Shown piece after piece: positions 9,137 to 61,915 of a stretch of 64,000 nt of DNA (its first letter is position 1; the number at the start of each line of letters is the position of its first letter). Source of the DNA: an uncultured Gammaproteobacteria bacterium (GTDB lineage: Bacteria; Patescibacteriota; Microgenomatia; UBA12405; JAHJSD01). The DNA is taken from the NCBI GenBank assembly GCA_964428655.1, contig CAYRYE010000001.1, positions 376,406-440,405 of the forward strand, written 5' to 3'. Position numbers and translations under genes: made by a program. Below the pieces are notes generated by a model, which was not told where the DNA came from, searched no databases, and saw only the letters and a program-made list of their open reading frames with translations.

Positions 9137-9143
9137 ATAAATA

Positions 9144-19098: not shown

Positions 19099-19109
19099 CC
19101 TTTACCTTG

Positions 19110-22024: not shown

Positions 22025-22155
22025 TTGCTCTGCTAGTAGTTTTTAAAAAGTTTTATTTTTCGAAAATCCATGGCGGATAAGGATTCGAGCCTGCTTAGGC
22101 CCTATAGACTGCTTGTGGTGAAGTTTAGGGAAAAGCTTGTATAATTGGACTTAGG

Positions 22156-27812: not shown

Positions 27813-27868
27813 GAAAAAATTACCCCTTGACAGGCTTTTTAAAATGCTGTTCTATTGAAATAGAGCTT

Positions 27869-38312: not shown

Positions 38313-38314
38313 TC

Positions 38315-39304
38315 ATGGCCATCGAAGCCTCTATTATCATTCCCGTAAAAGAAATTAATGATTATATACGGGATGAGATAATTCCGGCTTTAAAAAGACA
38401 GACTTTTAAAAATTTTGAATTGATAATTATTCCTGATAGACATGGGGGCTTGGTCCGTTTTCCTTCATTTGTCAGAATTTTTCCTTCATGGCCAAAGATA
38501 GGTCCGGCTTTTAAAAAAGATTTAGGAGTAAAAAAGGCCAAAGGAGAAATTGTTGTCTTTCTTGATGATGATGCTTATCCGGAAAAAGATTGGTTAGAAA
38601 AAGCAATACCTTATTTTAAAAGAGATGAAGTGACGGCTGTTTGCGGTCCTGGGGCGACTCCAGCCAATGATCCTGTTTTGGCCAAAGTTTCCGGTTGGAT
38701 GTGGTCATCGCTTTTGGGCTCTGGTGGAGCCGGAACTTACCGCTGCTGGCCTGGCAAAAAGCGAGAGGTGGATGACTATCCAGCCTTTAATTTATTTGTT
38801 AGAAAAAAAGATTTTGAATCAGTGGGTGGGTTTGATTCCAAATTCTGGCCGGGCGAGGATACTAAATTGTGCCATGATCTAGTCTATAAATTGGGCAAGA
38901 AAATTATTTATGATCCTAAAATTTTGGTTTATCATCACCGAAGAAAAATATTTAAACCCCATCTTAAGCAAATCGGCCGCTATGGATTCCAACGGGGATA
39001 TTTTGTTAGAATTTTGCCCAAAACTTCTAAAAGAATTGGTTATTTTATGCCGACACTTTTTGCGTTAGGCTTAATAATCGGGCCTGTTTTTTATTCTATT
39101 TTCGAGTCAGAGATAATAATTAATTTTTATTTATTTTCACTATTTGTTTATTTTTCGTTATTATTTGGAACAACAATTTGGGTTTTTACTAAAAGCAAGA
39201 ATTTGTTAATAGCTTTGCTGGTAATGCCAACAATTTTTGCCAGCCATGTTTTCTATGGCATTATGTTTTTAAAGGGGTTGTTCAGCAGACTGGAGACTAT
39301 TTAA
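38315..39304 (+). CDS. GT2 glycosyltransferase with a C-terminal membrane-spanning region
   Basis: ASIIIPVKEINDY…FELIIIPDRHGG…VVFLDDDAYP GT-A core. The last roughly 90 aa are hydrophobic. Confidence 0.6.
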   Translation: MAIEASIIIPVKEINDYIRDEIIPALKRQTFKNFELIIIPDRHGGLVRFPSFVRIFPSWPKIGPAFKKDLGVKKAKGEIVVFLDDDAYPEKDWLEKAIPYFKRDEVTAVCGPGATPANDPVLAKVSGWMWSSLLGSGGAGTYRCWPGKKREVDDYPAFNLFVRKKDFESVGGFDSKFWPGEDTKLCHDLVYKLGKKIIYDPKILVYHHRRKIFKPHLKQIGRYGFQRGYFVRILPKTSKRIGYFMPTLFALGLIIGPVFYSIFESEIIINFYLFSLFVYFSLLFGTTIWVFTKSKNLLIALLVMPTIFASHVFYGIMFLKGLFSRLETI

Positions 39305-41028: not shown

Positions 41029-41760
41029 TTACCAGGCGTAAGTGGCAAGATGTCTTTTGTTTGCGCTCAGTATGTGTTTATAACCAAAGGTTTTTAATAT
41101 TTTTTCAACTCTTTTCGATGTTGGTTGACTATCTATAATATGATAAGAGGCGATAGCCAATCTTGGGTGGAATTTTTTTAGAGTTTGCGCGGCTCCTATC
41201 AATGCTTCTATTTCCGAACCCTCTATGTCCATTTTAACAAAATCGACGGACCTCAATTTCAGCTTTTTAACCAAGGAATCAAGTTTTATTAATGTTATTT
41301 TTTTCTCTTTTTTGTTTCCGTAAAAAAGAGAAAGTTCACCCGGGCAATTTGAATTTGAAAAAGCAGATTTTTTTGTTTTTCTACTCCAAAGCCCTTTGCT
41401 GACAATAGTCACATTTTTAATGTTTAATTTTTTGAGCCGGTTCTTTAACAGTCTAACGCCTTGGGGGTCGGGCTCTATGGCGATAATTTTACCGTTTTTG
41501 CCAATAAGACGGGAAGCGATAATGGTGAAATTTCCTTCGTAGGCGCCTCCATCTATGACAACCTCCCCTTTTTTAGGTTTACCAAATTTCAGGTATCCGG
41601 AATAAACGTCTTCAACGAAACGGTAAAGCGGTATGGGAAAGAAGAGAAAAAACCAATTGTAAAGATTCCAGTAGTAGAAGGCTTCACCTTCCTTACAGAA
41701 CATTTTCTTGGCAAATTGTATCGCAATAATAGTTAGTTTTGTTTTTAACTTTAGGCTCAA
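41029..41760 (-). CDS. FkbM-family SAM-dependent methyltransferase
   Basis: VVIDGGAYEGNFTIIASRLIGKNGKIIAIEPDP…FVKMDIEGSEIEAL. Confidence 0.65.
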   Translation of the reverse strand: MSLKLKTKLTIIAIQFAKKMFCKEGEAFYYWNLYNWFFLFFPIPLYRFVEDVYSGYLKFGKPKKGEVVIDGGAYEGNFTIIASRLIGKNGKIIAIEPDPQGVRLLKNRLKKLNIKNVTIVSKGLWSRKTKKSAFSNSNCPGELSLFYGNKKEKKITLIKLDSLVKKLKLRSVDFVKMDIEGSEIEALIGAAQTLKKFHPRLAIASYHIIDSQPTSKRVEKILKTFGYKHILSANKRHLATYAW

Positions 41761-41797: not shown

Positions 41798-42565
41798 TTA
41801 CTTTTTGATAGCCGAGGCGATTAGAAAATAACCCCGCTTTTTGTCAATAGAACAAAGTAGATCTGACAGCCATCCATATAAAGGCACGTAGCCACGAGTA
41901 AACATTTTTATGTCTCTAAATCCCACTAGTTCTAAACTATCTTGCAATCCTTGAAAGGAAAGTACTTTGATATGGCCAATGGAGCCAGTTAAACCTTTTC
42001 TTTGGCATTTTTTTATCAATTTCTCGATGTCTTTGGCATTTTTTCTTTGTTTCATCAATGGATTGCCAACAAGCCAACCACCAATATCGCATGAAAATGG
42101 CTGCCAGCCAAAAAATAGGGCAAAAAGATTAGCGAAAGAGGCTAAATTTTCTGTTAAAATTATCAGCTGGCCGTTGGGCTTTAGGCAACGATAACACTCC
42201 AGAAGATAAAAAGCGGTGTTATGAACATGTTCTATGTTTTGGCTTGATAAAATAATGTCAAAGTAATTACTCTCAAGCGGCCATTTATAGTTTAAGTCGG
42301 CTTTCAGACATTTTATTCCTTTACTTTTTGCGGCCCTAATTCTTTGAGGGAGTATTTCAATGCCCCAGATTTCTTTAGATTTGATAGTTTTAGCAAATTC
42401 CTTTGTTAATTTTCCATCTGAACAGCCGAGGTCTAAAAATCTATCAACGTTCTTTTTAGTGATTAATTTTTTTCCTAAGGAAATACAATCCTTAACTCCT
42501 TCGTCAAAAGAATTGCGTGGACACAGTTTTACTGCTTTTTTGGCAAAGTTTATAAAAATATTCAT
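41798..42565 (-). CDS. Class I SAM-dependent methyltransferase
   Basis: RFLDLGCSDGKLT…LKPNGQLIILTEN (motifs I and II/III). Confidence 0.6.
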   Translation of the reverse strand: MNIFINFAKKAVKLCPRNSFDEGVKDCISLGKKLITKKNVDRFLDLGCSDGKLTKEFAKTIKSKEIWGIEILPQRIRAAKSKGIKCLKADLNYKWPLESNYFDIILSSQNIEHVHNTAFYLLECYRCLKPNGQLIILTENLASFANLFALFFGWQPFSCDIGGWLVGNPLMKQRKNAKDIEKLIKKCQRKGLTGSIGHIKVLSFQGLQDSLELVGFRDIKMFTRGYVPLYGWLSDLLCSIDKKRGYFLIASAIKK

Positions 42566-42595: not shown

Positions 42596-43645
42596 ATGAT
42601 TGTTTTAAATAAAATAAACCCCTTTTTTTCAATCGTTATTGCCAGTTACAACAGTGGTTCGTTTTTAAAAAACTGTCTGCGATCTATTTATCGATCCAGC
42701 TTTAAGAATTTTGAATTGATACTGGTTGATAATGCCTCAAACGACAATAGCGTGAAAGATCTTCTTCCAAAATTACTCCTGAAACCAAATTTTAAATTAG
42801 TTAGGATTAGAAAAAATGCCGGTTCGGCCGGTGGTAGAATTGCTGGTATTAAAAAAAGCCGTGGTCAATATTTATTTTTTTTGGATGCAGATACGGTAAT
42901 TAAAAAAAACTGTCTTGAAACATTGGCAGAGTTTTTAAAGAAACATCCCGAAGTCGGTATGGTTCACCCGAAACTTCTTAATTTAGAAAGAAAGCAGTTT
43001 TTTGATTGTGCCGGCGACTACTTAGATCCTTTTGGTTTTTTAATAAGCCGCGCTCAAGGGAGAAAAGACGATGGCAGCCTCGATTATATTTGCCCGATTT
43101 TAAGTAGTAAAACAGCGGCGGCAGTAATTAAAAAAGATGTTTATAAAAAGGTCGGTGGTTTTGACAAAGACTACTTTTTTCTCTTGGAAGACACTGATTT
43201 AGATTGGCGCCTATGGCTTAGTGGTTTCTCTGTCTTGTTTTTTCCCAAAGCGGTTGTTTATCACGGCTTTAACACTAGCGAAAAAAATAAAAATAAAAGT
43301 AAGTATTATTCGGAATTTGTTGTTAGATTCTATGGACCGCGTAATTACTTTTTAACTTTAGTAAAAAATTTAGGCACTATAAAATTGTTAAAAACGCTTC
43401 CCCTCCATTTGGGTTGCTGGTTTTCAGTAATAATTAGTTTGCTTTGGAAGGGCAGTTTTAAAGAGGCTTCATATACCGCGGGTGGGATTTTATGGAACTT
43501 AAAAAATCTGCCACTTGTTTTAAGAAAAAGGGCCGTGGTTCAAAAAAACAGAAAATTATCAGATGAGGATTTGGGATTTTTATTTAAGCCACTAGGGGAT
43601 AGAAAACAATATTTTTTACGGCTAAAGTCTTACATCAGTGATTAA
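42596..43645 (+). CDS. Family 2 glycosyltransferase
   Basis: FSIVIASYNSGSFLKNCLRSI…ELILVDNASNDNS…FFLDADTV. Confidence 0.65.
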   Translation: MIVLNKINPFFSIVIASYNSGSFLKNCLRSIYRSSFKNFELILVDNASNDNSVKDLLPKLLLKPNFKLVRIRKNAGSAGGRIAGIKKSRGQYLFFLDADTVIKKNCLETLAEFLKKHPEVGMVHPKLLNLERKQFFDCAGDYLDPFGFLISRAQGRKDDGSLDYICPILSSKTAAAVIKKDVYKKVGGFDKDYFFLLEDTDLDWRLWLSGFSVLFFPKAVVYHGFNTSEKNKNKSKYYSEFVVRFYGPRNYFLTLVKNLGTIKLLKTLPLHLGCWFSVIISLLWKGSFKEASYTAGGILWNLKNLPLVLRKRAVVQKNRKLSDEDLGFLFKPLGDRKQYFLRLKSYISD

Positions 43646-44699
43646 AAAATATATTGCCGTTTTACCATATTGGCCGGTATTTGCACCCAAGAACGAGGAC
43701 TATTTTTTCTTGCCCTCGCTGGTGGCAAAGGTTGCCGGCTATAAATCTTCTCTTTTGATTTATTCACCTAAAAAAGAAGAGGAAGCTAAGAATTATCAAG
43801 GAATAGATCTATTTTTTTGTAAAACTTTTAGAAATTTATATAAAAGTATTTCGAAAGATTCTATTGTTCATATTCAAACAACTTACCGATCATCGCTTTT
43901 GCTTATTCTTCTCTTAACGTTAAAAAGGAAGAACTGCCGGATAATTTGGACACCTCATACTTCTTTTGGAAAAAGATATCCCCTTGGTTTTAATTTTGAC
44001 ATTTTTAAAATTGCCTTCCCTGTTTTTAAAAAAATAGATAAAATAATCGCCATTACTGAATTCGAAAGGCAATATTTGGAGAAATTGGGATACAGAAATA
44101 TTGTTTACACTCCGCTTGTAACAGATGTAAAGAATTTTTCAAGAAATAAAAGACGGGAAAAGACTAAGGAGTTTAACTTTTTATTTATTGGTGGAGGGAG
44201 AAAAGTCAAAGGATTGGCAACAGTTTTGAAAGCATTTTCAGTTTTTGGAAAGTTTGGGATAAACAGCAATCTTTTTATTCTCGGTAGAGTGAGTAACAGC
44301 TTTAAAAAAAAATATTGTGATTTAATAAACAACAAGGTAAAGTTTTTTGGTGTTATAAAGCCCTGCTCTAATCACCTGGTCGATTTATTTGGGAAATCAA
44401 ATTGCTACATTAATGCTTCGTTTCAGGAAGGCAGTCCTCTAGCAGCGTTAGAAGCGGCGGCCTCAGGCCTATTTCTATGTTTACCTGATTTGCGAACACT
44501 AAAAAGCATTTTTGGAGATAATGCCTTTTATTACAAAATTGGCAGCTGGTTGGAGTTAATTGAAACGATGTTTCTTTGTTTTTACAATGTGGAAATTTCT
44601 CGAAAGAAAATTGCTAGAAATGAAAAATTGATGCGAGAGTTTTCTTGCGAAAAATTCGAGATTAAATTTACTTGCCTTTTAAGATCTTTGAGTAGTTAG
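43638..44699 (+). CDS. GT4-family (GT-B) glycosyltransferase
   Basis: …NASFQEGSPLAALEAAASGLFLCLPD… nucleotide-sugar binding region. Confidence 0.55.
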   Translation: MIKKYIAVLPYWPVFAPKNEDYFFLPSLVAKVAGYKSSLLIYSPKKEEEAKNYQGIDLFFCKTFRNLYKSISKDSIVHIQTTYRSSLLLILLLTLKRKNCRIIWTPHTSFGKRYPLGFNFDIFKIAFPVFKKIDKIIAITEFERQYLEKLGYRNIVYTPLVTDVKNFSRNKRREKTKEFNFLFIGGGRKVKGLATVLKAFSVFGKFGINSNLFILGRVSNSFKKKYCDLINNKVKFFGVIKPCSNHLVDLFGKSNCYINASFQEGSPLAALEAAASGLFLCLPDLRTLKSIFGDNAFYYKIGSWLELIETMFLCFYNVEISRKKIARNEKLMREFSCEKFEIKFTCLLRSLSS

Positions 44700-45393
44700 G
44701 TTTTTGAAAAATTGCTTCGTAGTTAACGGTAACTTCTTTAGTGGGAAAAATTTTGTCTAAAAAAGTTGCGGTTAAATTCATAAAAATTATTAGTGGGGAA
44801 AAGAGAATAATATAAGACCAGTAGGCGAGAGATTCTTTTTTTGTAAATAGTTTTGTTGGCAGGGTGGTAGCTAAATAGGAAAGTGTTTGAAATACGCCAT
44901 TTTGAGGCTTTAGATGACGAACTATAAATCCACTTGATTTGCCTAGATATTTTATCCCATACTCGGTAAATCGGAAATAATCATTGGGGGCGCTATGAAT
45001 TTGATAAAGGAAATTGGTGGTAAGAAACAGCAGCCCGCCAGGTTTCAATATTCGATAAAACTCTCTAAAAACTTTTCGCGGCCTTTTTAAATGTTCCAAA
45101 ACTTGAATGCAGAAAATGTAATCAAATGTTTTATCCTTTACAAAAGGCAATCCCTTATTAAGATTACCAGTGATATCCAAGTTTTGTTCTTTATTTTGTT
45201 TCAAGTCATGAGAAAAATATTGAGCCTTGCTGAATAACCGCTTGTAGTTGCTGGCTTGTACGCCGATGTCTAAGATTTTTTTTCCCGAACGGTCACATTT
45301 TTTGGCAGCAGATATAACAAATCTATCCATTTGGTAGTAGAAATTCATAAAAAGAAATTTTATAAAAAGTATGATTTTATCTTTAGTTGTCAT
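44668..45393 (-). CDS. Class I SAM-dependent methyltransferase
   Basis: KILDIGVQAS…LKPGGLLFLTTNF. A 32-nt convergent overlap with 43638-44699. Confidence 0.55.
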   Translation of the reverse strand: MTTKDKIILFIKFLFMNFYYQMDRFVISAAKKCDRSGKKILDIGVQASNYKRLFSKAQYFSHDLKQNKEQNLDITGNLNKGLPFVKDKTFDYIFCIQVLEHLKRPRKVFREFYRILKPGGLLFLTTNFLYQIHSAPNDYFRFTEYGIKYLGKSSGFIVRHLKPQNGVFQTLSYLATTLPTKLFTKKESLAYWSYIILFSPLIIFMNLTATFLDKIFPTKEVTVNYEAIFQKPNYSKILKGK

Positions 45394-46364
45394 GTTTTTT
45401 TACTGAAGTATTTTAAGCCGGTAATAGTTCCCAACCAGCCGCCCAGCCAATTTATATTTTTAGTTTTTATTGCCTTATAAGTCCAATAGGAGTTGAGGAA
45501 TAAAACATAGAGAGAAAACTTAAATACATAACTGGGTTTCAGTTTGAAAATATGAGTAAAATAAAATCGAATAAAATTTTCCATTCTTTCTTTAGCATCA
45601 GTTCTTCTTGAATAAGCGCCGCCTTGAGAAATATGGTGTTTTACTTTTGCCTTAGAATTAAAAACAAGTTGATAGCCTAATTCTTTAACTCTCATGGCTA
45701 AATCTAATTCAGACCACTCAGCCACTTTTTTGTAGTTATAGTCAAACCCACCCACTTTATTTACTAGTTTTTTTCTTAAGGTCATATTGCAGGCTTCAAG
45801 GTAATCAACTTCTCTTAAGCCCTTGATCTTTAAACAACTGAGAAAGTTAGAGCCTGGTGACCAGGCGCCGCTTTTAAAGATTCTTCCCACTTCGTGTTTT
45901 TTTCCTTCAAGAAAGAACCAGTTCCAAAAATTGCCTAATAATTTCCAAATTCCTTTGGAGTAATAAAGAAAGAAAACATCTCTGTTTTTTAAGAGTTTTA
46001 ACGGAATAATGGTTGGGCCGCTGACACCGCCAATTTTTTTGTTTTTAAAAGTGTTAATAATTGCCTTGGCCCAGCTTTTACTAACAATTACGTCGTCATC
46101 AATCCAGGCGACTAGTTTTCCTTTAGCTTTTCGCCAACCTTGATCTCTTGCTCTGGCCAGCTCTTTTTTTCTATAGACAATTTTTTTAATTTTAAGTTTT
46201 TTGGAATATTTGGAGATTACGTGATTGGTCTTGTCAGTTGAACCGCCGTCAATTATTACTGCCTCGAAATTAGAAGAATTTTGTTTTGTTAAACTTTCCA
46301 AACAGTTTTTAAGATCACCGGCCCGATTAAAAGTGCAAATCACTATTGATAGTTTTGGCTTCAT
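45390..46364 (-). CDS. Family 2 glycosyltransferase
   Basis: LSIVICTFNRAGDLKNCLESL…AVIIDGGSTDKT…AWIDDDV. Confidence 0.65.
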   Translation of the reverse strand: MKPKLSIVICTFNRAGDLKNCLESLTKQNSSNFEAVIIDGGSTDKTNHVISKYSKKLKIKKIVYRKKELARARDQGWRKAKGKLVAWIDDDVIVSKSWAKAIINTFKNKKIGGVSGPTIIPLKLLKNRDVFFLYYSKGIWKLLGNFWNWFFLEGKKHEVGRIFKSGAWSPGSNFLSCLKIKGLREVDYLEACNMTLRKKLVNKVGGFDYNYKKVAEWSELDLAMRVKELGYQLVFNSKAKVKHHISQGGAYSRRTDAKERMENFIRFYFTHIFKLKPSYVFKFSLYVLFLNSYWTYKAIKTKNINWLGGWLGTITGLKYFSKKT

Positions 46365-46385: not shown

Positions 46386-47411
46386 ATGAGGGATTATCTA
46401 ATTAGAAAAGCCAAATTATTGTATTCTTCTTCTTTGGGAATTGGGCGATTGGTTAAAGCAATTTCCTCTTCAAAAATTTACTTAAGAATCCTAAAAACGA
46501 AAATAATTAACCAAATTCACAAAGATAAAAAAGGACCTTTTAATTTGTCAATTGAGACAACCAATTTTTGCAATGCTTGTTGTTCAATGTGTCCTTATCG
46601 GCTGATGAAACGACCCAAAAAAATAATGGACGAAGAAATATTTAGTAAAATAGTCCGGCGAATAAAGAAGGAGAAAATTTGCATTAATAAGATTCTTTTA
46701 AGCGGCTTGGGGGAGCCGTTGACTGATCCAAATTTTATCTCACGGATTAAAAAATTAAAAAATCTTGGCTTTCCCATTCGACTTTACACTAATGCTTCTT
46801 TATTAACAAAGAAAATTGCTAAAGAATTAGTCAAAATTAAACTTGATGAGATCAATATCAGTTTTAATGGGGTTACGCCAAAGCAATATAAAAAGATAAT
46901 GGGATTGGATTTTGATAAAACAATTAAAAATATCGATAATCTTCTTGAAATTAAAAAAGAACAGAAAAGCAAGTTGCCAGTAATTCAAATATCTTCAATT
47001 ATTACTCCAGAAAACGAAGTTGATATTAAAAAGCATATTAAAAAATGGTCTGGAAAAGTAAGTTCAGTCACTGTTTCTCAGCCTCATGAGTGGGGCGGGG
47101 GAGTGAAGATGGCCTTCGACCTCTGGCCAAAAACTTCAAACACAACTTATCCTTGTCGGTCTCTTTGGCACACTTTTGTTATTGATAGTCAAGGTAATTT
47201 TGTCATCTGCTGCCGTGATTATGAATCAAAATATATTTTAGGCAATATTAAAACTGACTCGTTTTCTGCAATCCAAAATAATCCTCTTGTAAAAAAGTTT
47301 CGTCGGCTTCATTTACAGTTTCAAAAAGGAAAATTGCCTCAGATGTGCCGGAAATGCAATTTCCCCTATCAAGATGGAATCGAGTGGTTTATGCCTCGGT
47401 CAATAGATTAA
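46386..47411 (+). CDS. Radical SAM enzyme with a C-terminal SPASM/twitch-like Cys-rich domain
   Basis: FCNACCSMC (CX3CX2C) near the N-terminus. C-terminal cysteines …YPCRSLWHTFVIDSQGNFVICCRDY…MCRKCNF…. Confidence 0.6.
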   Translation: MRDYLIRKAKLLYSSSLGIGRLVKAISSSKIYLRILKTKIINQIHKDKKGPFNLSIETTNFCNACCSMCPYRLMKRPKKIMDEEIFSKIVRRIKKEKICINKILLSGLGEPLTDPNFISRIKKLKNLGFPIRLYTNASLLTKKIAKELVKIKLDEINISFNGVTPKQYKKIMGLDFDKTIKNIDNLLEIKKEQKSKLPVIQISSIITPENEVDIKKHIKKWSGKVSSVTVSQPHEWGGGVKMAFDLWPKTSNTTYPCRSLWHTFVIDSQGNFVICCRDYESKYILGNIKTDSFSAIQNNPLVKKFRRLHLQFQKGKLPQMCRKCNFPYQDGIEWFMPRSID

Positions 47412-48401
47412 GTTTTTTAAAATATTTTTGAAGATATATTTAATTGTATTTAGAGAGTATATCCAGAAGATGGAAAAACAAATTATCGGATGTAAAAACC
47501 AAGCTGGATCGGGGATTTTCACAAAACCTTTTAACGCCTCAATTATTGGCCCGATCCAAGTTAAGGCATAAATGGAATAGACAATAATTTTAATTTTGTC
47601 TTTTTGGGGATTGTAAATAAGATAGCGTCTTTGCAGTAGATCATGAAGATATAAATTGTTCATGTATTTTTGCCTTTTTTTTAAATATTTGAAGAAATTT
47701 TCTCCGCTGGCATGGATAATGTCATTTTTTACCACCACATATTTATTGTAACCTTTCTTTATCAAATCATAATTAACATCAATATGAAAAAAATGTTTTT
47801 TGTCAACATTAGCCCTCATAAGCAGATTTTTTTTAATTAGAAAGCCATTGGCTCCCACAGTGGAAAGATTCTCTTTGTCAAATTCAACCAAAAAGTATTC
47901 GCCTTTATCTGTTGCTTTTCCAGACAGAGTCCATTTTAAAGACAAATAAGACTGCCTATCAGCTTTGTTCAAAAAATAGGCAATTGGGTCATTAACACCG
48001 AAAAGAGAAAAATAACGATTTAGAATTTTATCCCTTTTCTGATAGGTGTATCGCCAGGGATAACAGCCAACTATATTAGTTTCTTTGTCAAGAAGGGAAA
48101 CCATTTTGGCCAGCCATTTTTTATTTGGCAGAATATTATCATCATCTATTTGAAGAATGAGTTCGTTTTTTGCCTGCCTTAGAGCAACCGCCTTGGCCGC
48201 CTCAGGACTACCGGTATTTTCAGGAATGATTTTAGTTTGATATTGTTTGGCAATTTCAATAGTTTTATCGGTTGAACCGCCATCAGCAATAATAATTTCA
48301 ATTTTATCTTGGTTATATTCTTGCTCTCGAACACTTTTAAGACACTTTTTCAAAGTTTTCTCACTATTAAGGGTGGCCATAATTACACTAATGCTTTTCA
48401 T
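47400..48401 (-). CDS. Family 2 glycosyltransferase
   Basis: ISVIMATLNSEKTLKKCLKSV…IIIADGGSTDKT…QIDDDN. Confidence 0.65.
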   Translation of the reverse strand: MKSISVIMATLNSEKTLKKCLKSVREQEYNQDKIEIIIADGGSTDKTIEIAKQYQTKIIPENTGSPEAAKAVALRQAKNELILQIDDDNILPNKKWLAKMVSLLDKETNIVGCYPWRYTYQKRDKILNRYFSLFGVNDPIAYFLNKADRQSYLSLKWTLSGKATDKGEYFLVEFDKENLSTVGANGFLIKKNLLMRANVDKKHFFHIDVNYDLIKKGYNKYVVVKNDIIHASGENFFKYLKKRQKYMNNLYLHDLLQRRYLIYNPQKDKIKIIVYSIYALTWIGPIIEALKGFVKIPDPAWFLHPIICFSIFWIYSLNTIKYIFKNILKNLIY

Positions 48402-48420
48402 AGTTGTATTATAGTCAATT

Positions 48421-49080
48421 TTAATTCTCTCGAAAAAGATGAACTTCCCAAAAATTTGCCAACCCTTTTAAAAATCTAGGTACTTTTTCAAAATAGCAGT
48501 AAAGCCAGCCAGCGTGCAGGCCTATAACCACAGGAATGATTTTATACTGCTTGAACAAACTTTTTTTAAGAAGAATAATCAAATCTTCTTCTGTGTATTC
48601 TCTTACATGTCCGGATTTAAAATGGGGAAACTTTCTTTTTTTGCTAAAAAATTCAATTACCCTGCGTGTTAACCTTTTTCTATTCGGAGTGGTTATTAGG
48701 GCAGCCGCTCCAGGCCTTAAGACCTGATACAGTTCATCTAGGGCCTTTAAATCATCAGGAACGTGTTCTATGACATGACTGCTCACAGCTATGTCAATAC
48801 TCTTTGGTTTAATAAAATTGGTTAGATTTTGCCAGTCACCGGTAATGTATCTGACATTCTTAAAATTAGAGGGCGTTTTTTGGGGAAGCAGTTCAACGCC
48901 AATCAATTGATGACAGTGCTGGCTGAGTTGTTTTGTTTTTTCCAAGTTTGAGGCTCCAATTTCTAAAACAATAGAAGATTTCTTGACATACTTTTTGTAA
49001 GATTGGCATATTGAAATCCAATCATAAGTAATGTTTAACGAGGGAAAGCCTATTTTCATGAGCCTGCCAAAGTATAACAA
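48421..49080 (-). CDS. Class I SAM-dependent methyltransferase
   Basis: VLEIGASNLEKT…LRPGAAALITTPN. Confidence 0.55.
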   Translation of the reverse strand: MLYFGRLMKIGFPSLNITYDWISICQSYKKYVKKSSIVLEIGASNLEKTKQLSQHCHQLIGVELLPQKTPSNFKNVRYITGDWQNLTNFIKPKSIDIAVSSHVIEHVPDDLKALDELYQVLRPGAAALITTPNRKRLTRRVIEFFSKKRKFPHFKSGHVREYTEEDLIILLKKSLFKQYKIIPVVIGLHAGWLYCYFEKVPRFLKGLANFWEVHLFREN

Positions 49081-49126
49081 ATAAACAGTCCGGAGCTGTT
49101 TGCCCTGGTATACTAATTAAAGAAAT

Positions 49127-50584
49127 ATGAAAATTGTTATTGCTTATCCCCCACTTGAATCAAAAAAAGGGATTCCATTTTTAGCCCAGAATCGGCAGTT
49201 TCAATGGGGGCATAGCCCATGGACTGCTTATCCAATGGTGCCGGCCTATGCGGCGGCAATGTTAAAACAAGCTGGACATCAGGTTTTTTGGTTGGACGGA
49301 ATTACCGAGGGGTGGTCTTATCAAAAATGGCTGAATGAAGTCAAAAAAATAGAACCGGATTTAATTGTTATAGAAACCAAGACCCCAGTAGTCAAACAAC
49401 ACTGGAAGATTATTAATCATCTTAAGTCACTGTCGACCGTTCTCGTTGGCGACCACGTCACCGCTTTACCTGGAGAATCATTCGAAAACTCTAAAGTTGA
49501 TTATGTTTTAACTGGCGGCGATTATGATTTTTTACTTCTTAATTTGGTTGAGCATTTAGCCAAAGGTGAGAAACTTGAACCTGGAATTTGGTATAGGGGA
49601 AAAATACGAGATACGAAATACGAGATACGAGATACCGGCCCTTTCAAGCTAAATCATGATTTAGATACTCTTCCCCTTATTGATCGTGATTTAACCAAAT
49701 GGAAGCTCTACGCTTATAAAAACAGCAATTATTGTCGAACGCCGGGAACATACACTATGTTTGGCCGAGATTGTTGGTGGGGGAAGTGTTTTTTTTGCTC
49801 CTGGACTACCTTATATCCAGGAGAAAATTATCGAACAATAAGCCCCAAGCGAGCCTTGGATGAGGTAGGTCATATTTTAGAGAATTATCCGATTAAGGAA
49901 ATCATGGATGATTCCGGCACTTTTCCTACTGGAGATTGGTTGAAAGAGTTTTGCCGAGGAATGATTAAAAGAGGTTATAATAAAAGAGTAAGAATTAGCT
50001 GTAATATGCGTTTTAATGCAGGTTTAAATAAAAAGGATTATCAATTAATGGGTAAAGCAGGATTTAGATTTCTTCTTTATGGATTAGAGTCAACTAATCA
50101 GAAAACTTTGGATAAAATTAATAAAAACATGAAAATAGAAGAAGTGGAAAAAGTTTTGGGTTGGGCCAAAGGAGCCAAACTTAATCCTCATTTAACCGTT
50201 ATGATTGGTTATCCTTGGGAAACAAAGAGAGAGATTAAGAAAACCTTAGATTTCACTAGAGATCTTTTCAAAAAAGGCCTAGCAGACACTCTCCAAGCAA
50301 CAATTGTTATTCCCTATCCGGGAACACCGCTTTTCGCTGAAGCAAAAAGAAAAGGTTGGTTGAAAACTTTAAATTGGGATCAATATGACATGCGGGAGCC
50401 GATTTTAAAAACAGAAATGAGAGGTGGGGAGATAAAAGCATTAATTCAAGATTTTTACAAATCTGTTTTCACGCCCCAATTTATTTTAAGAAAAGCAAGA
50501 GAAGCCTTTTCTAACTGGGATGTTTTTAGATATTATCTTAGATTGGGTTTGAAATTTCCCAACAAGCTCTTAGATTTTGTATAA
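49127..50584 (+). CDS. B12-binding-domain radical SAM protein (class-B-like)
   Basis: N-terminal Rossmann-like B12-binding-type region (MKIVIAYPP…), a Cys cluster CWWGKCFFC (CX4CX2C variant), and a TIM-barrel-like remainder. Contains the ATACGAG heptamer repeat at 49624-49656. Confidence 0.55.
   Translation: MKIVIAYPPLESKKGIPFLAQNRQFQWGHSPWTAYPMVPAYAAAMLKQAGHQVFWLDGITEGWSYQKWLNEVKKIEPDLIVIETKTPVVKQHWKIINHLKSLSTVLVGDHVTALPGESFENSKVDYVLTGGDYDFLLLNLVEHLAKGEKLEPGIWYRGKIRDTKYEIRDTGPFKLNHDLDTLPLIDRDLTKWKLYAYKNSNYCRTPGTYTMFGRDCWWGKCFFCSWTTLYPGENYRTISPKRALDEVGHILENYPIKEIMDDSGTFPTGDWLKEFCRGMIKRGYNKRVRISCNMRFNAGLNKKDYQLMGKAGFRFLLYGLESTNQKTLDKINKNMKIEEVEKVLGWAKGAKLNPHLTVMIGYPWETKREIKKTLDFTRDLFKKGLADTLQATIVIPYPGTPLFAEAKRKGWLKTLNWDQYDMREPILKTEMRGGEIKALIQDFYKSVFTPQFILRKAREAFSNWDVFRYYLRLGLKFPNKLLDFV
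49624..49656 (+). repeat. Heptanucleotide tandem repeat (ATACGAG, about 4.7 units) inside the B12-radical-SAM gene
   Basis: atacgag atacgaa atacgag atacgag atacc. Encodes …KIRDTKYEIRDTG…. Confidence 0.8.
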
Positions 50585-50602
50585 TAAGCAAAAAGAGAGA
50601 CA

Positions 50603-51157
50603 ATGACCAAAAAAAAGAAAAATAAAAGTAGGCCGTTTATTTTGTTTATTACTGGAATCAGTGGTTCGGGAAAAACAACTGTTTTTGAGAAATTTTCGAA
50701 AGATTTAAGTTTAAAGGCTTCTTCGATTGAATTTCGAGAAATTGATGAAAAAAAAGTTCCCCCTGTGGGAAGAAGCCATTGGCGTCAATATCGAGTTGAG
50801 GAGCTTCTTTATCAGGCAATTAAAAACTTAAAGAAAGGAAAATCTACTGTTATTTGTGGTATTACTTTGCCTCAAGAAATTATTAATTCAAGATTGTATA
50901 AACCTTCTTTTAATATTCATTTTCTCTTACTCGACATTCCTATTTCCCTTTTTTCTAAAAGAGTGAAAGAGAGAATTAAAAAAACTAAAGAAGAGAAAAA
51001 TTGGGAAGAGTTAAAATATTCCACAAAAAAACTTTCTACTAGATTAAAAAATCAAGTGGTTAGTTATAAAAATGGTTTAGTGTTGGATGTAGGCAAAAAA
51101 AATGTTGATGAGATTTTCAAAGATGTTTTTTCTTTGATGAGAAAGTTACAGAAATAA
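50603..51157 (+). CDS. Small P-loop NTPase / nucleotide-kinase-like protein
   Basis: Walker A FITGISGSGKTT with a kinase-like size (184 aa). Confidence 0.5.
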   Translation: MTKKKKNKSRPFILFITGISGSGKTTVFEKFSKDLSLKASSIEFREIDEKKVPPVGRSHWRQYRVEELLYQAIKNLKKGKSTVICGITLPQEIINSRLYKPSFNIHFLLLDIPISLFSKRVKERIKKTKEEKNWEELKYSTKKLSTRLKNQVVSYKNGLVLDVGKKNVDEIFKDVFSLMRKLQK

Positions 51158-51176: not shown

Positions 51177-51947
51177 ATGAAACAAAATTACCGAGATTTG
51201 CTTTTCAACCTGGTTAAGCGCGAGATTGCTGGGAGGTATAAACAATCAATTCTGGGCTACTTCTGGGTGGTTTTAAACCCCTTTTTCCAGATGCTGGTAA
51301 TGACATTAGTCTTTTCAAAAATCATGCGAATTTCGATTCCTGGTGTGCCTTATTTTCTGTTTTTATATGTGGGTCTCTTGCCTTGGACTTTTTTTGTTAA
51401 TTCTGTTAATTCGGCAATGGGAAATCTGGTCGGCATGGGTTCTTTAATAAAAAAGGTTTATTTTCCCAGGGAGATTATTGTTTTGGCAGCTGTTTTAGCA
51501 AAAGTGGTAGATCTTATTTTGGCCTCTCTGATTTTTGTCTTGTTTATGATTATTTTTCGCCAATCAACTAATTTGGCTTTAGATTTAGCAGTTGTTCCTA
51601 TGATTTTTCTTATCCAGTTTATTTTTTCTTTCGGCATTGGCCTTTTTGTTTCTGCTTTAAACCTTTTTTATCGCGATGTTCAGTATTTGATGAGTTTAAT
51701 TTTAATGCTTTGGTTTTATTTAACGCCAGTGGTTTATCCAATTGAAATGGTCCCCGAGAAACTGCGGATTGTCTTTTCACTTAATCCTATGTCGGTTTTA
51801 ACCAATGCTTATCGACGGGTAATTCTAGGCGGTTCTTTGCCAAATTTAGCCCATTTGACAGTCGCCTTGTTAGTTTCGTTAATTATCTTGGTAATTGGCT
51901 GGAGAGTATTTAAAAAACTAGAAGGCCGCTTTGCAGATGTTGTCTAA
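51177..51947 (+). CDS. ABC-2 type transporter permease (Wzm/TagG-like polysaccharide exporter)
   Basis: 256 aa with 6 TM helices. The N-terminal …LVKREIAGRYKQSILGYFWVVLNP… ABC-2 signature precedes the Wzt-like ATPase. Confidence 0.7.
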   Translation: MKQNYRDLLFNLVKREIAGRYKQSILGYFWVVLNPFFQMLVMTLVFSKIMRISIPGVPYFLFLYVGLLPWTFFVNSVNSAMGNLVGMGSLIKKVYFPREIIVLAAVLAKVVDLILASLIFVLFMIIFRQSTNLALDLAVVPMIFLIQFIFSFGIGLFVSALNLFYRDVQYLMSLILMLWFYLTPVVYPIEMVPEKLRIVFSLNPMSVLTNAYRRVILGGSLPNLAHLTVALLVSLIILVIGWRVFKKLEGRFADVV

Positions 51948-53391
51948 AAAAATGAAAAATAACATTGCCATTAAATTTGATTCTGTTTCTAAACTCTATT
52001 ATCTCCAGTCCCATCGGACTTTAAAAGAGTTTCTGCCGGCATTTTTAAAAAAGAAAGCACCAAAGACTCTCCGACGAGTGGCCCGTCAGTTTTATGCCCT
52101 AAAAAACATTTCTTTTAAAATTAAAAAGGGCGAGACAGTCGGCATCATTGGTCCTAACGGAGCCGGCAAGTCAACTATTCTCAAATTGATCGCCGGCGTC
52201 ACCAAGCCAACCAGAGGAAAAATAACTGTCAACGGCCAGGTTTCACCTTTAATCGAATTAGGAGCCGGTTTTCATCCTGATTTAACCGGTCGGGAAAACA
52301 TTTATCTTAACGGTTCCATTTTGGGTCTGACTAAAAAGAAAATTGACAAAAAATTCAAAGAAATCGTTGATTTTGCCGAACTCTGGGACTTTATTGACCA
52401 ACCAGTCAAACACTATTCTTCAGGTATGTATGCTCGTTTAGGCTTTTCAATTGCCATTAGTGTTGAGCCGGAAATTCTTTTAATTGATGAAATTTTAGCT
52501 GTTGGCGATGCTGCTTTTCAAGAAAAATGTTTTGCCAAGATGGAGGAATTTAAAAAGAGTGGAGTGACGATTATTTATGTTTCCCATTCCCTTCCCAGTG
52601 TGGCCAAATTTTGTAATCATTGTCTCTATTTAGATAAATCCAAGTTGATTTCTGAAGGTAATCCCCAAGAAATAATAGAAAATTATTTAAGAACTGAAAA
52701 AAAAGTCAGCAGTCAACAGTATCACCAAACCCCAGAAAAAAGTTCAATTGAGGCGATTGATCCAAGCTGGTACAAAAATTTTGTTGGCGGCATGTGGGAG
52801 GAAATAGGTAAGTTACAGTTTGATTTTTTAATTAAACAAGGCTTAAAACCTGAAAATAAGTTATTAGATCTTGGTTGCGGCAGCTTGAGAGGGGGAATTC
52901 ATTTTATTAAATATCTTAAAAAAGGAAATTATTTTGGGATTGACGTTAGAAAAGATATTTTAATTGCCGCTGAAAAAGAAATTAAAATTAATAAACTATC
53001 AAACAAGAATCCTCAATTATTTCAAATAACTGATAATAAATATGATGATCATTTAAAAGAAAAATTTGATTTTATTTTGGCTGTTTCCGTTTTTACCCAT
53101 TTAAATTTAAATGAAGTTGCTATTTGTTTATATGAAGCAAAAAAAATTCTTAAAAAGAAAGGCAATTTTTTTGCCACTTATTTTGAATCAGAAAAATGTG
53201 TTTTTGATACTAATGGTTTTCTTCAAGTAGAGAAGCCGGATAAGGTTATTACCCTTTTTCACAAGGATCCTTACCATTATTGCTTTTCTCTAATAAAAGA
53301 AGTGGCTAAATTAATTGGATTAAAGGCAAAAGTTATCAAGAATTGGAAACATCCTCGAAATCAAAAAATGTTAGTTTTTAGACATCAGTAA
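51931..53391 (+). CDS. ABC transporter ATP-binding protein (Wzt/TagH-like) fused to a C-terminal class I SAM-methyltransferase-like domain
   Basis: Walker A GPNGAGKST, signature YSSGMYARLG, Walker B LLIDEIL, H-loop YVSHS. Then a ~230-aa extension with LLDLGCGSLRGG (MTase motif I), YFGIDV, and FDFILAVSVFTH. Confidence 0.7.
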   Translation: MQMLSKKMKNNIAIKFDSVSKLYYLQSHRTLKEFLPAFLKKKAPKTLRRVARQFYALKNISFKIKKGETVGIIGPNGAGKSTILKLIAGVTKPTRGKITVNGQVSPLIELGAGFHPDLTGRENIYLNGSILGLTKKKIDKKFKEIVDFAELWDFIDQPVKHYSSGMYARLGFSIAISVEPEILLIDEILAVGDAAFQEKCFAKMEEFKKSGVTIIYVSHSLPSVAKFCNHCLYLDKSKLISEGNPQEIIENYLRTEKKVSSQQYHQTPEKSSIEAIDPSWYKNFVGGMWEEIGKLQFDFLIKQGLKPENKLLDLGCGSLRGGIHFIKYLKKGNYFGIDVRKDILIAAEKEIKINKLSNKNPQLFQITDNKYDDHLKEKFDFILAVSVFTHLNLNEVAICLYEAKKILKKKGNFFATYFESEKCVFDTNGFLQVEKPDKVITLFHKDPYHYCFSLIKEVAKLIGLKAKVIKNWKHPRNQKMLVFRHQ

Positions 53392-53393: not shown

Positions 53394-56300
53394 ATGGCTA
53401 AGGGTAAAAGAAAGACCATTTGTATTTTAGGAATGCATCGGGCAGGCACTTCCCTTTTAACTAGAATTTTAAATATTTCTGGAATGGCGATTGGAGAAAA
53501 AGAGGAAATAATTGGTGTCAGGAAGGGTAATCCCACCGGTCATTGGGAAAATAAAGCCTTTGTTGAGATTAATAATCAGATTATTTCAATATTTAAGAAA
53601 AATGCTGATTGGCATGAAATTCCTGATTATCCCACTAATTGGTTAAAAAATCCCAAGGTAGTATCACTGGAAAGAAAAGCAAAAGAGCTAGTGAAAAAAA
53701 TGAATGCAAGATATAAAATTTGGGGGTGGAAAGACCCCCGAACTTGTGTTACTTTGCCTTTTTGGCAAAAGATAATTGGGGACGAATTGGTCTATGTGGT
53801 TATTTTTAGGAATCCTCTTGATGTCGCCAAATCATTAAAAAAAGTTCACAATCTTCCCCATGATAAAAGCATTTTGCTTTGGGCAAGATATTATCTTACT
53901 GTTTTAGATAGTCTTAGAGGCAAGAAGTTTTCTTTTATTCATTCTGAAAAATTATTATCAAATTGGGAAAAAGAAATTAAAAAAATATTGAAACATATAA
54001 ATTCTTCTTATCTCAAAATTAATGATCAGAAAAGAGAAGAGGTTAACAATTTTATCAGGCCTAGCATTTGGCATTTTAGTACCAAGACTAAAAATAGTTT
54101 TTTTGGCTTGGCAGATAATTTGCGATTGGCCTTGCTTGATTACTTATATCTTTCTACTAATAAAGTTAAAACAATTTTAAAAAAGGATCTTACTAATTTG
54201 GGCCATCAGTTAGCCAATAAAACCAACCAGGCAAATGCCCTTGTTGGAGAATTAACGAAAAAAGATGAACAATTGATAGTTAAAGATAACCAATTAAGTG
54301 ACTTTTCTAAACAATTAAGAGATACTACTGAGGAGTTGGAAGTGACTAAAAATGAACTTGTCGAGGCTGAGGAAAAGTTAGGAAAAACAGGTAAAGAAAT
54401 ATATGACGCTATAATTAAGCAGGAACAAAAAATAAAACAGCTTCGGTTAAAAGCAAGAGAGATCAATAAATCTCTTAAAAAGAAAAAGATGGTTATCAAA
54501 GAAAAAAACAAAAAAGTGGCTGATCTAAGTCTCCACTCTCAAAATCTGGGGAAAATTCTTGCCAATATTGTTTCGGCAAAAACTTTTAAGGCCTGGCAAA
54601 CATACGTGAAGATTAGACGAAAACCGACGCTTTTGATTGAAGCTGGGAAAACTTTATTAAAAAAAGGTCCAGGAGGTTTAAAGCAAAGGTTGACAAATGT
54701 TCAACAAAAGGAAGAAAGAATAGCCGCTCTTAATCAACAATATCATGTTTGGTTGAGAAAAAATACTCCCACAAAAAAGGAATTAAGAGGTCAAAAAAGA
54801 AAACAAAAAAAATTTGAATATAGGCCCAAAATCAGCATTATTACTCCAGTTTACAACACTGATAAAAAGTGGCTGCGAGCCTGTATTGAATCGGTCTTAG
54901 TTCAAACATACGACAATTGGGAGTTATGCATAGCTGACGACGCCTCAACAAAGCCCTATATTAAAAAAATCTTGAAAGAATATGAAAAGAAAGACAAGAG
55001 AATAAATGTTGTTTATCGTCGAAGAAATGGCCATATTTCTCGAGCCTCAAATTCAGCTCTGAGACAAGCAGTGGGAAAGTTTATCGCCCTTTTAGATCAT
55101 GATGATAAGCTAGTGCCTCATGCCCTGTATAGAGTGGTTGAATTTTTGAATAAAAAAAGAAAGGCTGATTTTGTTTACTCTGATGAGGACAAATTAGATT
55201 TAAATGGCAACCGGGTTAAACCATTTTTTAAGCCAGACTGGTCACCTGATATGTTTTTATCAGCCAATTATTTGTGTCATTTAAGTGTAATTAGAAAAAA
55301 ATTAGTTGATAAAGTTGGTGGTTTTAAACCAGGCTATGAGGGTTCTCAGGATTATGATTTGTTTTTAAGAATTACTGAAAAGACAGACAAGATTTATCAC
55401 ATCCCTGATGTTCTTTATTCTTGGAGAGAGGCGTCTGGATCTACGGCGGCAGTTTATGAAGTCAAGGGTTATGCTGATGCGGCCGCAGCTAAAGCCTTAA
55501 AAAGTAGTATTAAAAGAAAAAAATTAAAAGCAGAAGTGGAACAAGGTTTGATTCCCGGAACATTTAGAGTTAAATACAAGATTAAAAAGAAACCTTTGGT
55601 TAGTATTATTATTCCTACCAAAGACATTGTTAATTATCTTAAAAGGTGTGTTGAATCTATTTTGAAAAAAACAGATTATGATAATTATGAAATTATTATT
55701 GTTGATACTGGAAGCAAAGAAAAGAAAACCTTTAGGTATTATGAGAAATTAAAAAAAAATCCAAGGATTAAGTTTTTGCAATGGGATAAACCTTTTAATT
55801 TTGCTTCAGTTAATAATTTTGCTGTTAAGAATACCCAAGGGAAATATGTTCTTCTTCTTAATAATGATATAGAAGTCGTCTCTTATGATTGGATAAAGTC
55901 AATGCTTGAGCATGCCCAGAGAGCTGAGGTGGGAGCGGTAGGGGCGAAATTATTATACCCTGATGGAAAAATTCAACATGCCGGGATAATTTTAGGGATT
56001 CGTGGCGGACCAATTAAGAAGGGGATAGCTGGTCATGCCCAAAAGATGTTTATAGATGAACCTTCGGGATTACCCCTATGGAACTCAAAAGATATGATAA
56101 GGAATTTTTCAGCAGTAACAGCCGCCTGTCTTATGATTGAAAGAAGTAAATATTTAGAAGTCAAAGGGATGAATGAAAAACTAGAAATTGCCTTTAATGA
56201 TGTTGATTTTTGCCTTAAACTGCAAAAAAAGGGGTATCTCAATGTTTATACCCCTTATGGCGGACTTTATCATTACGAGTCAGTTTCTGTTGGTCGTCCA

Positions 56301-56441
56301 AGTCAAGGGACAAGAGATATTGCCGAATTCCAAAAAGAGATTAACATAATGCACCGAAAATGGGGGCACCTTTTACAAAATGATCCTTACTATAATTCAA
56401 ACCTGACTTTAGACAGGGAAGATTTCAGTTTGGGAGTATGA
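53394..56441 (+). CDS. Multidomain glycan assembly protein: N-terminal sulfotransferase-like domain, ~200-aa coiled coil, then two tandem GT2 domains
   Basis: 5'-PSB-like ICILGMHRAGTS and 3'-PB-like VIFRNPLDVAKS. Heptad-rich K/E/Q segment about aa 270-470. GT2 domain 1 has ISIITPVYNTDKKWL…CIADDAST…LDHDD. GT2 domain 2 has VSIIIPTKDIVNYL…IIIVDTGS…LNNDIEV. Confidence 0.7.
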   Translation: MAKGKRKTICILGMHRAGTSLLTRILNISGMAIGEKEEIIGVRKGNPTGHWENKAFVEINNQIISIFKKNADWHEIPDYPTNWLKNPKVVSLERKAKELVKKMNARYKIWGWKDPRTCVTLPFWQKIIGDELVYVVIFRNPLDVAKSLKKVHNLPHDKSILLWARYYLTVLDSLRGKKFSFIHSEKLLSNWEKEIKKILKHINSSYLKINDQKREEVNNFIRPSIWHFSTKTKNSFFGLADNLRLALLDYLYLSTNKVKTILKKDLTNLGHQLANKTNQANALVGELTKKDEQLIVKDNQLSDFSKQLRDTTEELEVTKNELVEAEEKLGKTGKEIYDAIIKQEQKIKQLRLKAREINKSLKKKKMVIKEKNKKVADLSLHSQNLGKILANIVSAKTFKAWQTYVKIRRKPTLLIEAGKTLLKKGPGGLKQRLTNVQQKEERIAALNQQYHVWLRKNTPTKKELRGQKRKQKKFEYRPKISIITPVYNTDKKWLRACIESVLVQTYDNWELCIADDASTKPYIKKILKEYEKKDKRINVVYRRRNGHISRASNSALRQAVGKFIALLDHDDKLVPHALYRVVEFLNKKRKADFVYSDEDKLDLNGNRVKPFFKPDWSPDMFLSANYLCHLSVIRKKLVDKVGGFKPGYEGSQDYDLFLRITEKTDKIYHIPDVLYSWREASGSTAAVYEVKGYADAAAAKALKSSIKRKKLKAEVEQGLIPGTFRVKYKIKKKPLVSIIIPTKDIVNYLKRCVESILKKTDYDNYEIIIVDTGSKEKKTFRYYEKLKKNPRIKFLQWDKPFNFASVNNFAVKNTQGKYVLLLNNDIEVVSYDWIKSMLEHAQRAEVGAVGAKLLYPDGKIQHAGIILGIRGGPIKKGIAGHAQKMFIDEPSGLPLWNSKDMIRNFSAVTAACLMIERSKYLEVKGMNEKLEIAFNDVDFCLKLQKKGYLNVYTPYGGLYHYESVSVGRPSQGTRDIAEFQKEINIMHRKWGHLLQNDPYYNSNLTLDREDFSLGV

Positions 56442-61152: not shown

Positions 61153-61153
61153 A

Positions 61154-61903: not shown

Positions 61904-61915
61904 TTTTACTTTTCT

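Follow-up and report, generated by a model that had tools for sequence, protein, structure and literature searches.

The 64,000-nucleotide window analysed here (the whole stretch of contig CAYRYE010000001.1, with positions counted from its first letter) carries, at 46386-51157, two radical S-adenosylmethionine (SAM) enzymes set among glycosyltransferase and methyltransferase genes. Sequence comparison indicates that this segment is probably the centre of a conserved locus for the assembly of a cell-envelope glycan or glycoconjugate in bacteria of the Candidate Phyla Radiation (CPR), and that both radical SAM enzymes tailor this glycan or glycoconjugate. As for their chemistry, any single reaction type is a tentative proposal at best. 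The host is a Microgenomates-type CPR bacterium; the G+C content of the window ranges from 33 to 44%, and the named relatives of its proteins come from Shapirobacteria, Beckwithbacteria and other Patescibacteria. A sequence-only reading of the same DNA had described the segment as a glycan-tailoring toolkit in which two radical SAM enzymes, a P-loop kinase and four methyltransferases are clustered with an exporter. The genes and domains it listed match the open reading frames (ORFs) exactly (ORF map and Pfam), and the four methyltransferases (41029-41760, 41798-42565, 44668-45393 and 48421-49080) as well as the Wzm/Wzt exporter have Pfam support.

The first radical SAM enzyme (46386-47411, plus strand, 341 aa) passes the Pfam cut-offs for both Radical_SAM (74.1 bits, cut-off 29.5) and SPASM (PF13186, 50.8 bits). 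Its core motif CX3CX2C, formed by C62, C66 and C69, is invariant in all 16 aligned family members, which are 30-63% identical to the query. In the C-terminal domain of the same alignment, the only invariant cysteines are C257, C275, C321 and C324, with C276 nearly invariant, and CX2CX5CX3C, a part of the seven-cysteine SPASM signature, is not present. The sole significant PDB sequence match is BtrN (4m7t, E 1.7e-10), the butirosin 2-deoxy-scyllo-inosamine dehydrogenase and prototype of the Twitch-domain radical SAM enzymes, with the cysteines of the Twitch region in register (phmmer; 4m7t/4m7s), and the NCBIfam model N_Twi_rSAM matches residues 257-325. Because its four conserved auxiliary cysteines align with the Twitch domain of BtrN, the product is assigned as a BtrN-like enzyme of the Twitch type, with one predicted auxiliary cluster. 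Membership of the full SPASM subfamily, which has two auxiliary clusters, was rejected on the same cysteine count despite the PF13186 match; of the earlier description "CX3CX2C plus a SPASM-like C-terminus", the motif holds and the C-terminus is refined to the Twitch type. The best NCBIfam model for this enzyme, that of the tungsten-cofactor maturases, covers the core only and stays below its cut-off (125 vs. 380 bits).

The second radical SAM enzyme (49127-50584, plus strand, 485 aa), hereafter the B12-type enzyme, combines an N-terminal Rossmann (cobalamin-binding-like) domain with a CX4CX2C motif, as judged from Pfam, AlphaFold2 (AF2) and Foldseek. Radical_SAM (PF04055) scores 59.5 bits vs. 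a cut-off of 29.5, and the motif, in the form C[YW]WG[RK]CxFC, is kept in 116 of the 120 homologues. The B12-binding domain (PF02310) reaches 21.9 bits in this protein, under its cut-off of 32.1, and a precomputed PF02310 match is listed for most of the homologues; the CX4CX2C part of the sequence-only description is therefore borne out and its B12-binding part remains below threshold in the protein itself. Among the NCBIfam models, HpnJ (TIGR03471) matches best, with 157.5 bits vs. a cut-off of 577.6 and residues 35-477 aligned on model positions 33-463, followed by BchE and others. The AF2 model (predicted local distance difference test, pLDDT, 86.2) displays a beta-alpha Rossmann N-domain, and its top Foldseek match is AprD4 (6fd2; template modelling score, TM, 0.74/0.78; E 1.5e-22), the radical SAM 1,2-diol dehydratase of the apramycin pathway acting on paromamine, ahead of MgmA, TsrM, OxsB (TM 0.69) and CysS. 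AprD4 is also the best PDB sequence match (E 2.3e-9).

The B12-type enzyme was nevertheless assigned to neither of these families. An HpnJ orthologue was rejected on the score given above and on the hopanoid (hpn/shc) genes, which were not found in the window or the related loci, and an AprD4-family diol-dehydratase was rejected since NF033070 gives 54.6 bits vs. a cut-off of 500, the likeness being at the level of the fold only. Within its own family, identity is 60-73% across many CPR lineages. The first enzyme belongs to the Twitch subfamily by its N_Twi_rSAM match and the BtrN alignment, and no NCBIfam cut-off is reached by either radical SAM enzyme, by the P-loop protein or by the methyltransferases.

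The gene order was compared with that of homologous contigs, four Microgenomates contigs being compared by gene call, while a tblastn search of species-representative genomes supplied further loci. In the Microgenomates loci (L001, L003, L005, L006, L009, L011 and L012), the order is glycosyltransferase of family 2 (GT2; -), Twitch enzyme (+), [methyltransferase], GT2 (-), [Wzx, GT2, GT2], B12-type enzyme (+), flanked by a gene coding for a PMT_2-like glycosyltransferase with tetratricopeptide repeats (PMT_2-TPR) and by more GT2s, with identities of 51-72%. In the Parcubacteria-type loci (L015, L017, L018, L021 and L022), the B12-type gene, two GT2s and the Twitch gene follow one another in a single orientation. 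The block Wzx-GT2-GT2 is found directly upstream of the B12-type gene in L005, L006 and L092 (51-53% identity in the latter), and L092 keeps the run GT2-GT2-B12-GT2, whose glycosyltransferases are homologues of the window genes at 37509, 38315 and 47400. In both L091 and L092, a GT2 directly follows the B12-type orthologue, in glycan loci that also hold Wzx, methyltransferases, NeuB and extra radical SAM enzymes. Looser counterparts occur in Pacearchaeota (DPANN archaea), where Twitch homologues lie amid GT2, GT4, PMT_2, DegT and deacetylase genes together with one to three B12-type radical SAM enzymes.

Co-occurrence was counted in the loci with at least 8 kb of flanking sequence, a B12-type orthologue being defined by at least 45% identity within 10 kb. 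Such an orthologue was found in 13 of the 18 loci with a Twitch enzyme of 38% identity or more. Below 38%, none of the loci has a B12-type orthologue, and 13 out of 50 have some other radical SAM enzyme with a B12 domain. Since independent CPR genomes contain the same genes in syntenic order, the clustering of these radical SAM enzymes with glycan genes is not due to chance: the Twitch gene, the two GT2s, the B12-type gene, Wzx and PMT_2-TPR all recur in CPR loci. The tie to glycans proposed in the sequence-only reading is therefore upheld, because the conserved neighbourhoods of both families are glycan loci and not the cofactor or peptide-maturase contexts that would have spoken against it.

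The closest partner of the Twitch gene is a GT2 on the minus strand (45390-46364; Glycos_transf_2, 93.6 bits), divergent from it over a 21-bp gap. Homologues with 59-70% identity adjoin the Twitch gene upstream in L001, L003, L005-L007, L009, L011, L012 and L014, and lie about 2 kb upstream in L013. A second GT2 (47400-48401, minus strand, 333 aa, 86.4 bits), with a C-terminal membrane segment (residues 272-290), is convergent with the Twitch gene, which it overlaps by 12 bp. It is the conserved partner of the B12-type enzyme, with homologues of 58-71% identity in the Microgenomates loci and of 34-39% directly 3' of the B12-type gene in L015, L017, L018, L021, L022 and L092.

Concerning the methyltransferases, the class I SAM enzyme at 48421-49080 (minus strand, 219 aa, Methyltransf_23/11) is semi-conserved in the module, the gene that comes next to the Twitch gene on its 3' side in L003, L006 and L009 being a homologue of 41-46% identity. 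The FkbM-type enzyme at 41029-41760 and the two Methyltransf_11 enzymes at 41798-42565 and 44668-45393, all on the minus strand, have no conserved counterparts in the syntenic loci. Of the four methyltransferases grouped as a toolkit, one thus belongs beside the Twitch gene and the other three are variable accessories. Wzt (51931-53391) carries a fifth methyltransferase domain as a C-terminal fusion, and a recognisable variant of the SAM-binding motif I is present in all five domains. We infer that the three variable methyltransferases, the Wzt-methyltransferase, the sulfotransferase-like gene and the P-loop gene described below are lineage-specific additions outside the conserved core.

A scheme can be proposed for the locus, in which the GT2s would build a lipid-linked sugar or oligosaccharide at the cytoplasmic face of the membrane. 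The 5'-deoxyadenosyl radical of the Twitch enzyme would then take a carbinol hydrogen; passage of an electron to the single auxiliary cluster would turn a secondary alcohol into a ketone, as in the oxidation by BtrN, while return of a hydrogen by the nearly invariant Cys276 would result in epimerisation. The B12-type enzyme would carry out a radical rearrangement of the glycosyl unit, for which an AprD4-like 1,2-diol dehydration, an HpnJ/OxsB-like ring contraction and a GenD1-like cobalamin-dependent C-methylation are candidates. The product would be methylated by the conserved methyltransferase (48421-49080), the glycan exported by Wzx and/or Wzm-Wzt, and extracellular transfer performed by membrane glycosyltransferases of the GT-C type. 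C-methylation or epimerisation, as first suggested, may occur, with no more evidence behind them than behind oxidation, dehydration or ring contraction.

The P-loop protein (50603-51157, plus strand, 184 aa, Walker A GISGSGKT) has the fold of a small-molecule kinase and is an accessory specific to the window; in the Pfam scan it gives weak matches to P-loop kinases. Its AF2 model (pLDDT 88.7) matches UMP/CMP, adenylate, thymidylate, gluconate and adenosine 5'-phosphosulfate (APS) kinases about equally well (TM ~0.57-0.6). Only 12 homologues were found in 5.8 billion clusters and none in 86 related loci searched by tblastn. The three homologue contexts that were examined are not glycan loci, two of them holding a single glycosyltransferase gene several kb away. 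As a member of the conserved module the protein was therefore rejected; in the Microgenomates loci examined, the gene in its position codes for a small membrane protein that is unrelated to it. In these loci, a conserved hydrophobic protein of 138-189 aa with a DHLxDxW motif and no Pfam match comes after the B12-type gene (L003, 14238-14807; L001, 15044-15463; L005, 16567-17001; L006, 17405-17821); the window lacks it and has the P-loop gene in that position.

Two genes further downstream, at 53394-56441 (plus strand), lies a gene whose 1015-aa product joins a sulfotransferase-like N-terminus to two GT2 domains (2x Glycos_transf_2, 175 bits) through a long charged linker. An alternative role for the P-loop protein would be that of a divergent APS-kinase-like enzyme which, instead of phosphorylating a glycan, supplies 3'-phosphoadenosine 5'-phosphosulfate (PAPS) to this sulfotransferase-like domain. 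The two genes are co-oriented in the same tight string, the APS kinases 2yvu and 7yq0 are among the top fold matches, and the best PDB match of the P-loop family profile is the APS kinase of A. fulgidus (E 0.0024), with an alignment confined to the P-loop and the acidic motif that comes after it. A true APS kinase (CysC) was rejected, however, as the profiles stay far under their cut-offs (TIGR00455, 22.4 vs. 138.7; PF01583, 17.5 vs. 21.1); moreover, the TM of about 0.57 is the same as for other kinase families, and no sulfotransferase was seen beside the homologues in the three contexts. PAPS supply is thus considered unlikely.

That both radical SAM enzymes act on a glycan or glycoconjugate is favoured by their nearest solved relatives, BtrN and AprD4, which are sugar-tailoring enzymes. 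It is also favoured by the scanned ORFs of the window, among which no nucleoside diphosphate (NDP)-sugar epimerase, dehydratase, aminotransferase or nucleotidyltransferase was found, the radical SAM enzymes and the methyltransferases being what is left to account visibly for the diversity of the sugars. Several observations weigh against it. Every family model tried stays below its curated cut-off (HpnJ, 157 vs. 578; AprD4, 55 vs. 500; tungsten-cofactor maturase, 125 vs. 380), identity to BtrN and AprD4 is low (~16% for AprD4), solved structures are a small and biased sample, and a literature search on these CPR radical SAM-glycan loci returned nothing relevant. There are also weak matches to lipid-modifying radical SAM enzymes, namely the ladderane B12 radical SAM enzyme (79 bits), Tes (41 bits) and GDGT-MAS (E 0.0016), and the strong conservation of the B12-type family is in keeping with a core substrate that is itself conserved and might be a lipid carrier, not a sugar.

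These last two points are shared by a second alternative, in which both enzymes would modify a lipid (the polyprenyl carrier, or the head group or chain of a membrane lipid) that the adjacent GT2s merely use. It is further helped by HpnJ, the best profile match, which acts on hopanoid-linked glucosamine after the GT2 HpnI (PMC9204698, PMC13459092). The reaction proposed for HpnJ takes place on the sugar ring, however, BtrN and AprD4 act on carbohydrates, and lipid-synthesis genes were not seen in any locus examined, so that a lipid substrate appears distinctly improbable.

Tailoring of the glycan being preferred, a more specific version can be formulated. The CPR module of Twitch enzyme, B12-type enzyme and GT2s, with its looser DPANN form, may make a non-standard sugar directly on the lipid-linked glycan of a conserved envelope polymer, and thereby replace, by an anaerobic radical route, the tailoring carried out by other bacteria on NDP-sugars; candidates for such a sugar are deoxy, keto/epimerised and C-methylated units or a ring-contracted carbocycle. 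This version is speculative and rather doubtful. If it were true, radical sugar chemistry of the aminoglycoside and hopanoid type would belong to the core functions of the envelope in ultra-small cells.

Directly 3' of the P-loop gene, in the same orientation and with gaps of 18-20 bp, come the exporter genes. Wzm (51177-51947, plus strand) is an ABC-2 permease (PF01061, 66.1 bits) with seven hydrophobic segments in a crude hydropathy scan, two pairs of which overlap. Wzt (51931-53391, plus strand) couples an ABC ATPase (PF00005, 86.5 bits) to a C-terminal class I methyltransferase domain (Methyltransf_31/12, residues 298-421), whose motif I is LLDLGCGSLRGG. NCBIfam models describe the ATPase as TagH/Wzt-like (185-240 bits, under the equivalog cut-offs), and the pair, an ABC-2 permease plus a TagH/Wzt-type ATPase, qualifies as a set of ABC-transporter-dependent glycan export genes. 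Full-length relatives are few, about five of the best 150 cluster representatives aligning from end to end (P0255, P0317, P0319, P0360 and P0372). Of the related loci, L015 and L021 alone have Wzm and Wzt, and there Wzt is without the methyltransferase domain. In capped-glycan systems the C-terminus of Wzt is a carbohydrate-binding module; the fusion seen here could couple capping, or the reading of a cap, to export.

The sequence-only reading had invoked O9a-type systems, as in E. coli, where a kinase and a methyltransferase define termination. Transposed to the window, the P-loop protein would phosphorylate the non-reducing end and the small methyltransferases would cap it, together with the sulfotransferase, thus ending polymerisation and licensing export by Wzm/Wzt. 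The export route, the methyltransferase activities nearby, the methyltransferase domain on Wzt and the kinase fold of the P-loop protein speak for such an arrangement. So does the 1015-aa protein, whose layout, with a K/E/Q-rich, coiled-coil-like linker of about 200 aa, presumably resembles that of terminator-ruler-polymerase proteins such as WbbB/WbdD. Its sulfotransferase assignment is below threshold, however (Sulfotransfer_3, 20.7 bits, cut-off 27), with a GMHRAGTS stretch resembling by eye a PAPS-binding loop and no PDB sequence match for the N-terminus.

WbdD is a coiled-coil protein carrying a protein-kinase-like kinase and a methyltransferase, and the O9a Wzt has a cap-binding C-terminal module. 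Because that kinase is not comparable to a 184-aa P-loop protein, whose fold is that of nucleoside monophosphate (NMP), APS and gluconate kinases, an O9a-type terminator is unsupported. No protein-kinase-like kinase domain was found in the window, no carbohydrate-binding module is recognisable in Wzt, whose C-terminus is a class I methyltransferase domain instead, and a WbdD-type terminator was accordingly rejected. With the P-loop protein missing from all 86 loci and its homologues lying outside glycan loci in the three contexts examined, its proposed role as a glycan kinase is not sustained either. Chain-length control of the O9a type is thus very improbable, a result that corrects a tempting analogy.

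It is extremely improbable that the Twitch enzyme is a protein or peptide maturase, of the ribosomally synthesised and post-translationally modified peptide (RiPP) class or making formylglycine, like the sulfatase-maturating anSME, in the protein encoded at 34798-36282: SPASM-domain enzymes are best known as peptide maturases, several NCBIfam maturase models match in part, a sulfatase-family gene directly follows the Twitch homologue in L090 and the window itself has a Phosphodiest/Sulfatase-like gene 11 kb upstream, but anSME and RiPP SPASM enzymes hold two auxiliary clusters where four conserved auxiliary cysteines allow one. The C/S-x-P-x-R motif is missing both from the phosphodiesterase of the window and from the sulfatase-like protein of L090. 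The other syntenic loci have no sulfatase-family gene, and the gaps in the module, of 18-46 bp, are too short to hold a precursor gene.

Beyond the segment, the entire 64 kb reads as a glycan island in Pfam scans of the ORFs, with two Wzx-like flippases (277-1731 and 36275-37561), more than 12 GT2s, several GT4s, eight GT-C enzymes, Wzm/Wzt and the 1015-aa multi-domain glycosyltransferase. The second flippase forms with two GT2s the block 36275-39304 (plus strand). It is followed by the PMT_2-TPR gene (39269-41017, minus strand), a GT-C membrane glycosyltransferase with C-terminal TPR repeats (TPR families) that just misses the PMT_2 cut-off (25.4 vs. 26.1 bits) and has homologues with 47-55% identity in L003, L006, L011 and L013. 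At 42596-45393, Pfam recognises a GT2 (plus strand), with homologues of 37-41% identity in the syntenic loci, a GT4 (plus strand) and the Methyltransf_11 enzyme cited above. The eight GT-C enzymes (PMT/PMT_2/GT87) are located at 9214-25354, 33641-34837 and 39269-41017, five of them in two tandem runs, and their abundance suggests extensive extracytoplasmic glycosylation using lipid-linked donors.

A 1538-aa protein with repeated CarboxypepD_reg/transthyretin-like domains is encoded at 27827-32443 (plus strand), the only stretch of raised G+C in the window (~0.44 vs. ~0.35), and may be a surface protein and a target of glycosylation. Directly 3' of the glycan genes, at 57502-62593 (plus strand), are found a 1216-aa protein that combines a CotH kinase domain with a beta-helix, then a VTC-domain protein and a DUF4956 protein. 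A 197-aa protein with an adenylate/guanylate cyclase domain (19110-19703, minus strand) lies within the island. Proteins of the alkaline-phosphatase superfamily (Phosphodiest/Sulfatase) are encoded at 34798-36282 (plus strand) and, in L090, at 8028-9344, the latter near a PAPS_reduct-family gene; they may be transferases or hydrolases of phospho-substituents on the glycan. The Rfam scan gave no match anywhere in the window, and no cobalamin or SAM riboswitch was found.

A third radical SAM gene (17723-18793, plus strand) was rejected as a member of the toolkit, its product being a Cfr/RlmN-type rRNA methylase unrelated to glycans. More precisely, it is a Cfr-like 23S rRNA A2503 methyltransferase that barely passes the PRK14453.1 Cfr model (468.9 vs. 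468) and stays under both the Cfr family exception model (473 vs. 530) and the RlmN cut-off (273 vs. 290). That a CPR genome encodes an enzyme of the Cfr type rather than of the RlmN type may be relevant to intrinsic resistance to antibiotics.

The envelopes of CPR and DPANN cells are chemically almost uncharacterised, yet they mediate attachment to the host. The module that these lineages appear to have in common suggests that a core glycoconjugate of the envelope contains an unusual sugar common to them, and the two enzyme families, compact and well defined, offer a way of finding new radical carbohydrate chemistry.

Among the known systems, BtrN shares with the Twitch enzyme the CX3CX2C core, the C-terminal domain with four cysteines in register and the setting in a carbohydrate pathway. 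It is nevertheless smaller (~250 vs. 341 aa), the Twitch enzyme having a conserved N-terminal extension of about 50 aa and the additional nearly invariant Cys276. The two cores match weakly (17.8 bits), and BtrN is encoded in an aminoglycoside cluster, whereas the Twitch enzyme lies beside GT2s in a cell-surface glycan locus. As for AprD4, which also has a sugar substrate, it resembles the B12-type enzyme over the whole chain, with an N-terminal Rossmann domain and a radical SAM barrel, but at about 16% identity, and no AprD3-like reductase was identified near the B12-type gene. AprD4 has a Rossmann-type N-domain but is not known to use cobalamin.

HpnJ, for its part, gives a full-length profile match, and each of the two enzymes is paired with a GT2 (HpnI in the case of HpnJ); the reaction proposed for it is a ring contraction converting bacteriohopanetetrol (BHT)-glucosamine into a cyclitol ether (PMC9204698, PMC13459092). 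With GenD1, GenK and OxsB, which are sugar C-methylases and ring contractases, the B12-type enzyme has in common a class-B-like architecture, and CX4CX2C is a known variant in both OxsB and GenD1, cobalamin-dependent enzymes on sugars (PMC9204698, PMC4340712). All three are cobalamin-dependent, whereas the Pfam B12-binding score of the window enzyme is under the cut-off. Radical SAM tailoring of sugars is already known from aminoglycoside, nucleoside and hopanoid pathways; the case described here is a conserved module of Twitch enzyme, B12-type enzyme and GT2s that CPR bacteria carry in their envelope glycan loci and that is echoed more loosely in DPANN archaea.

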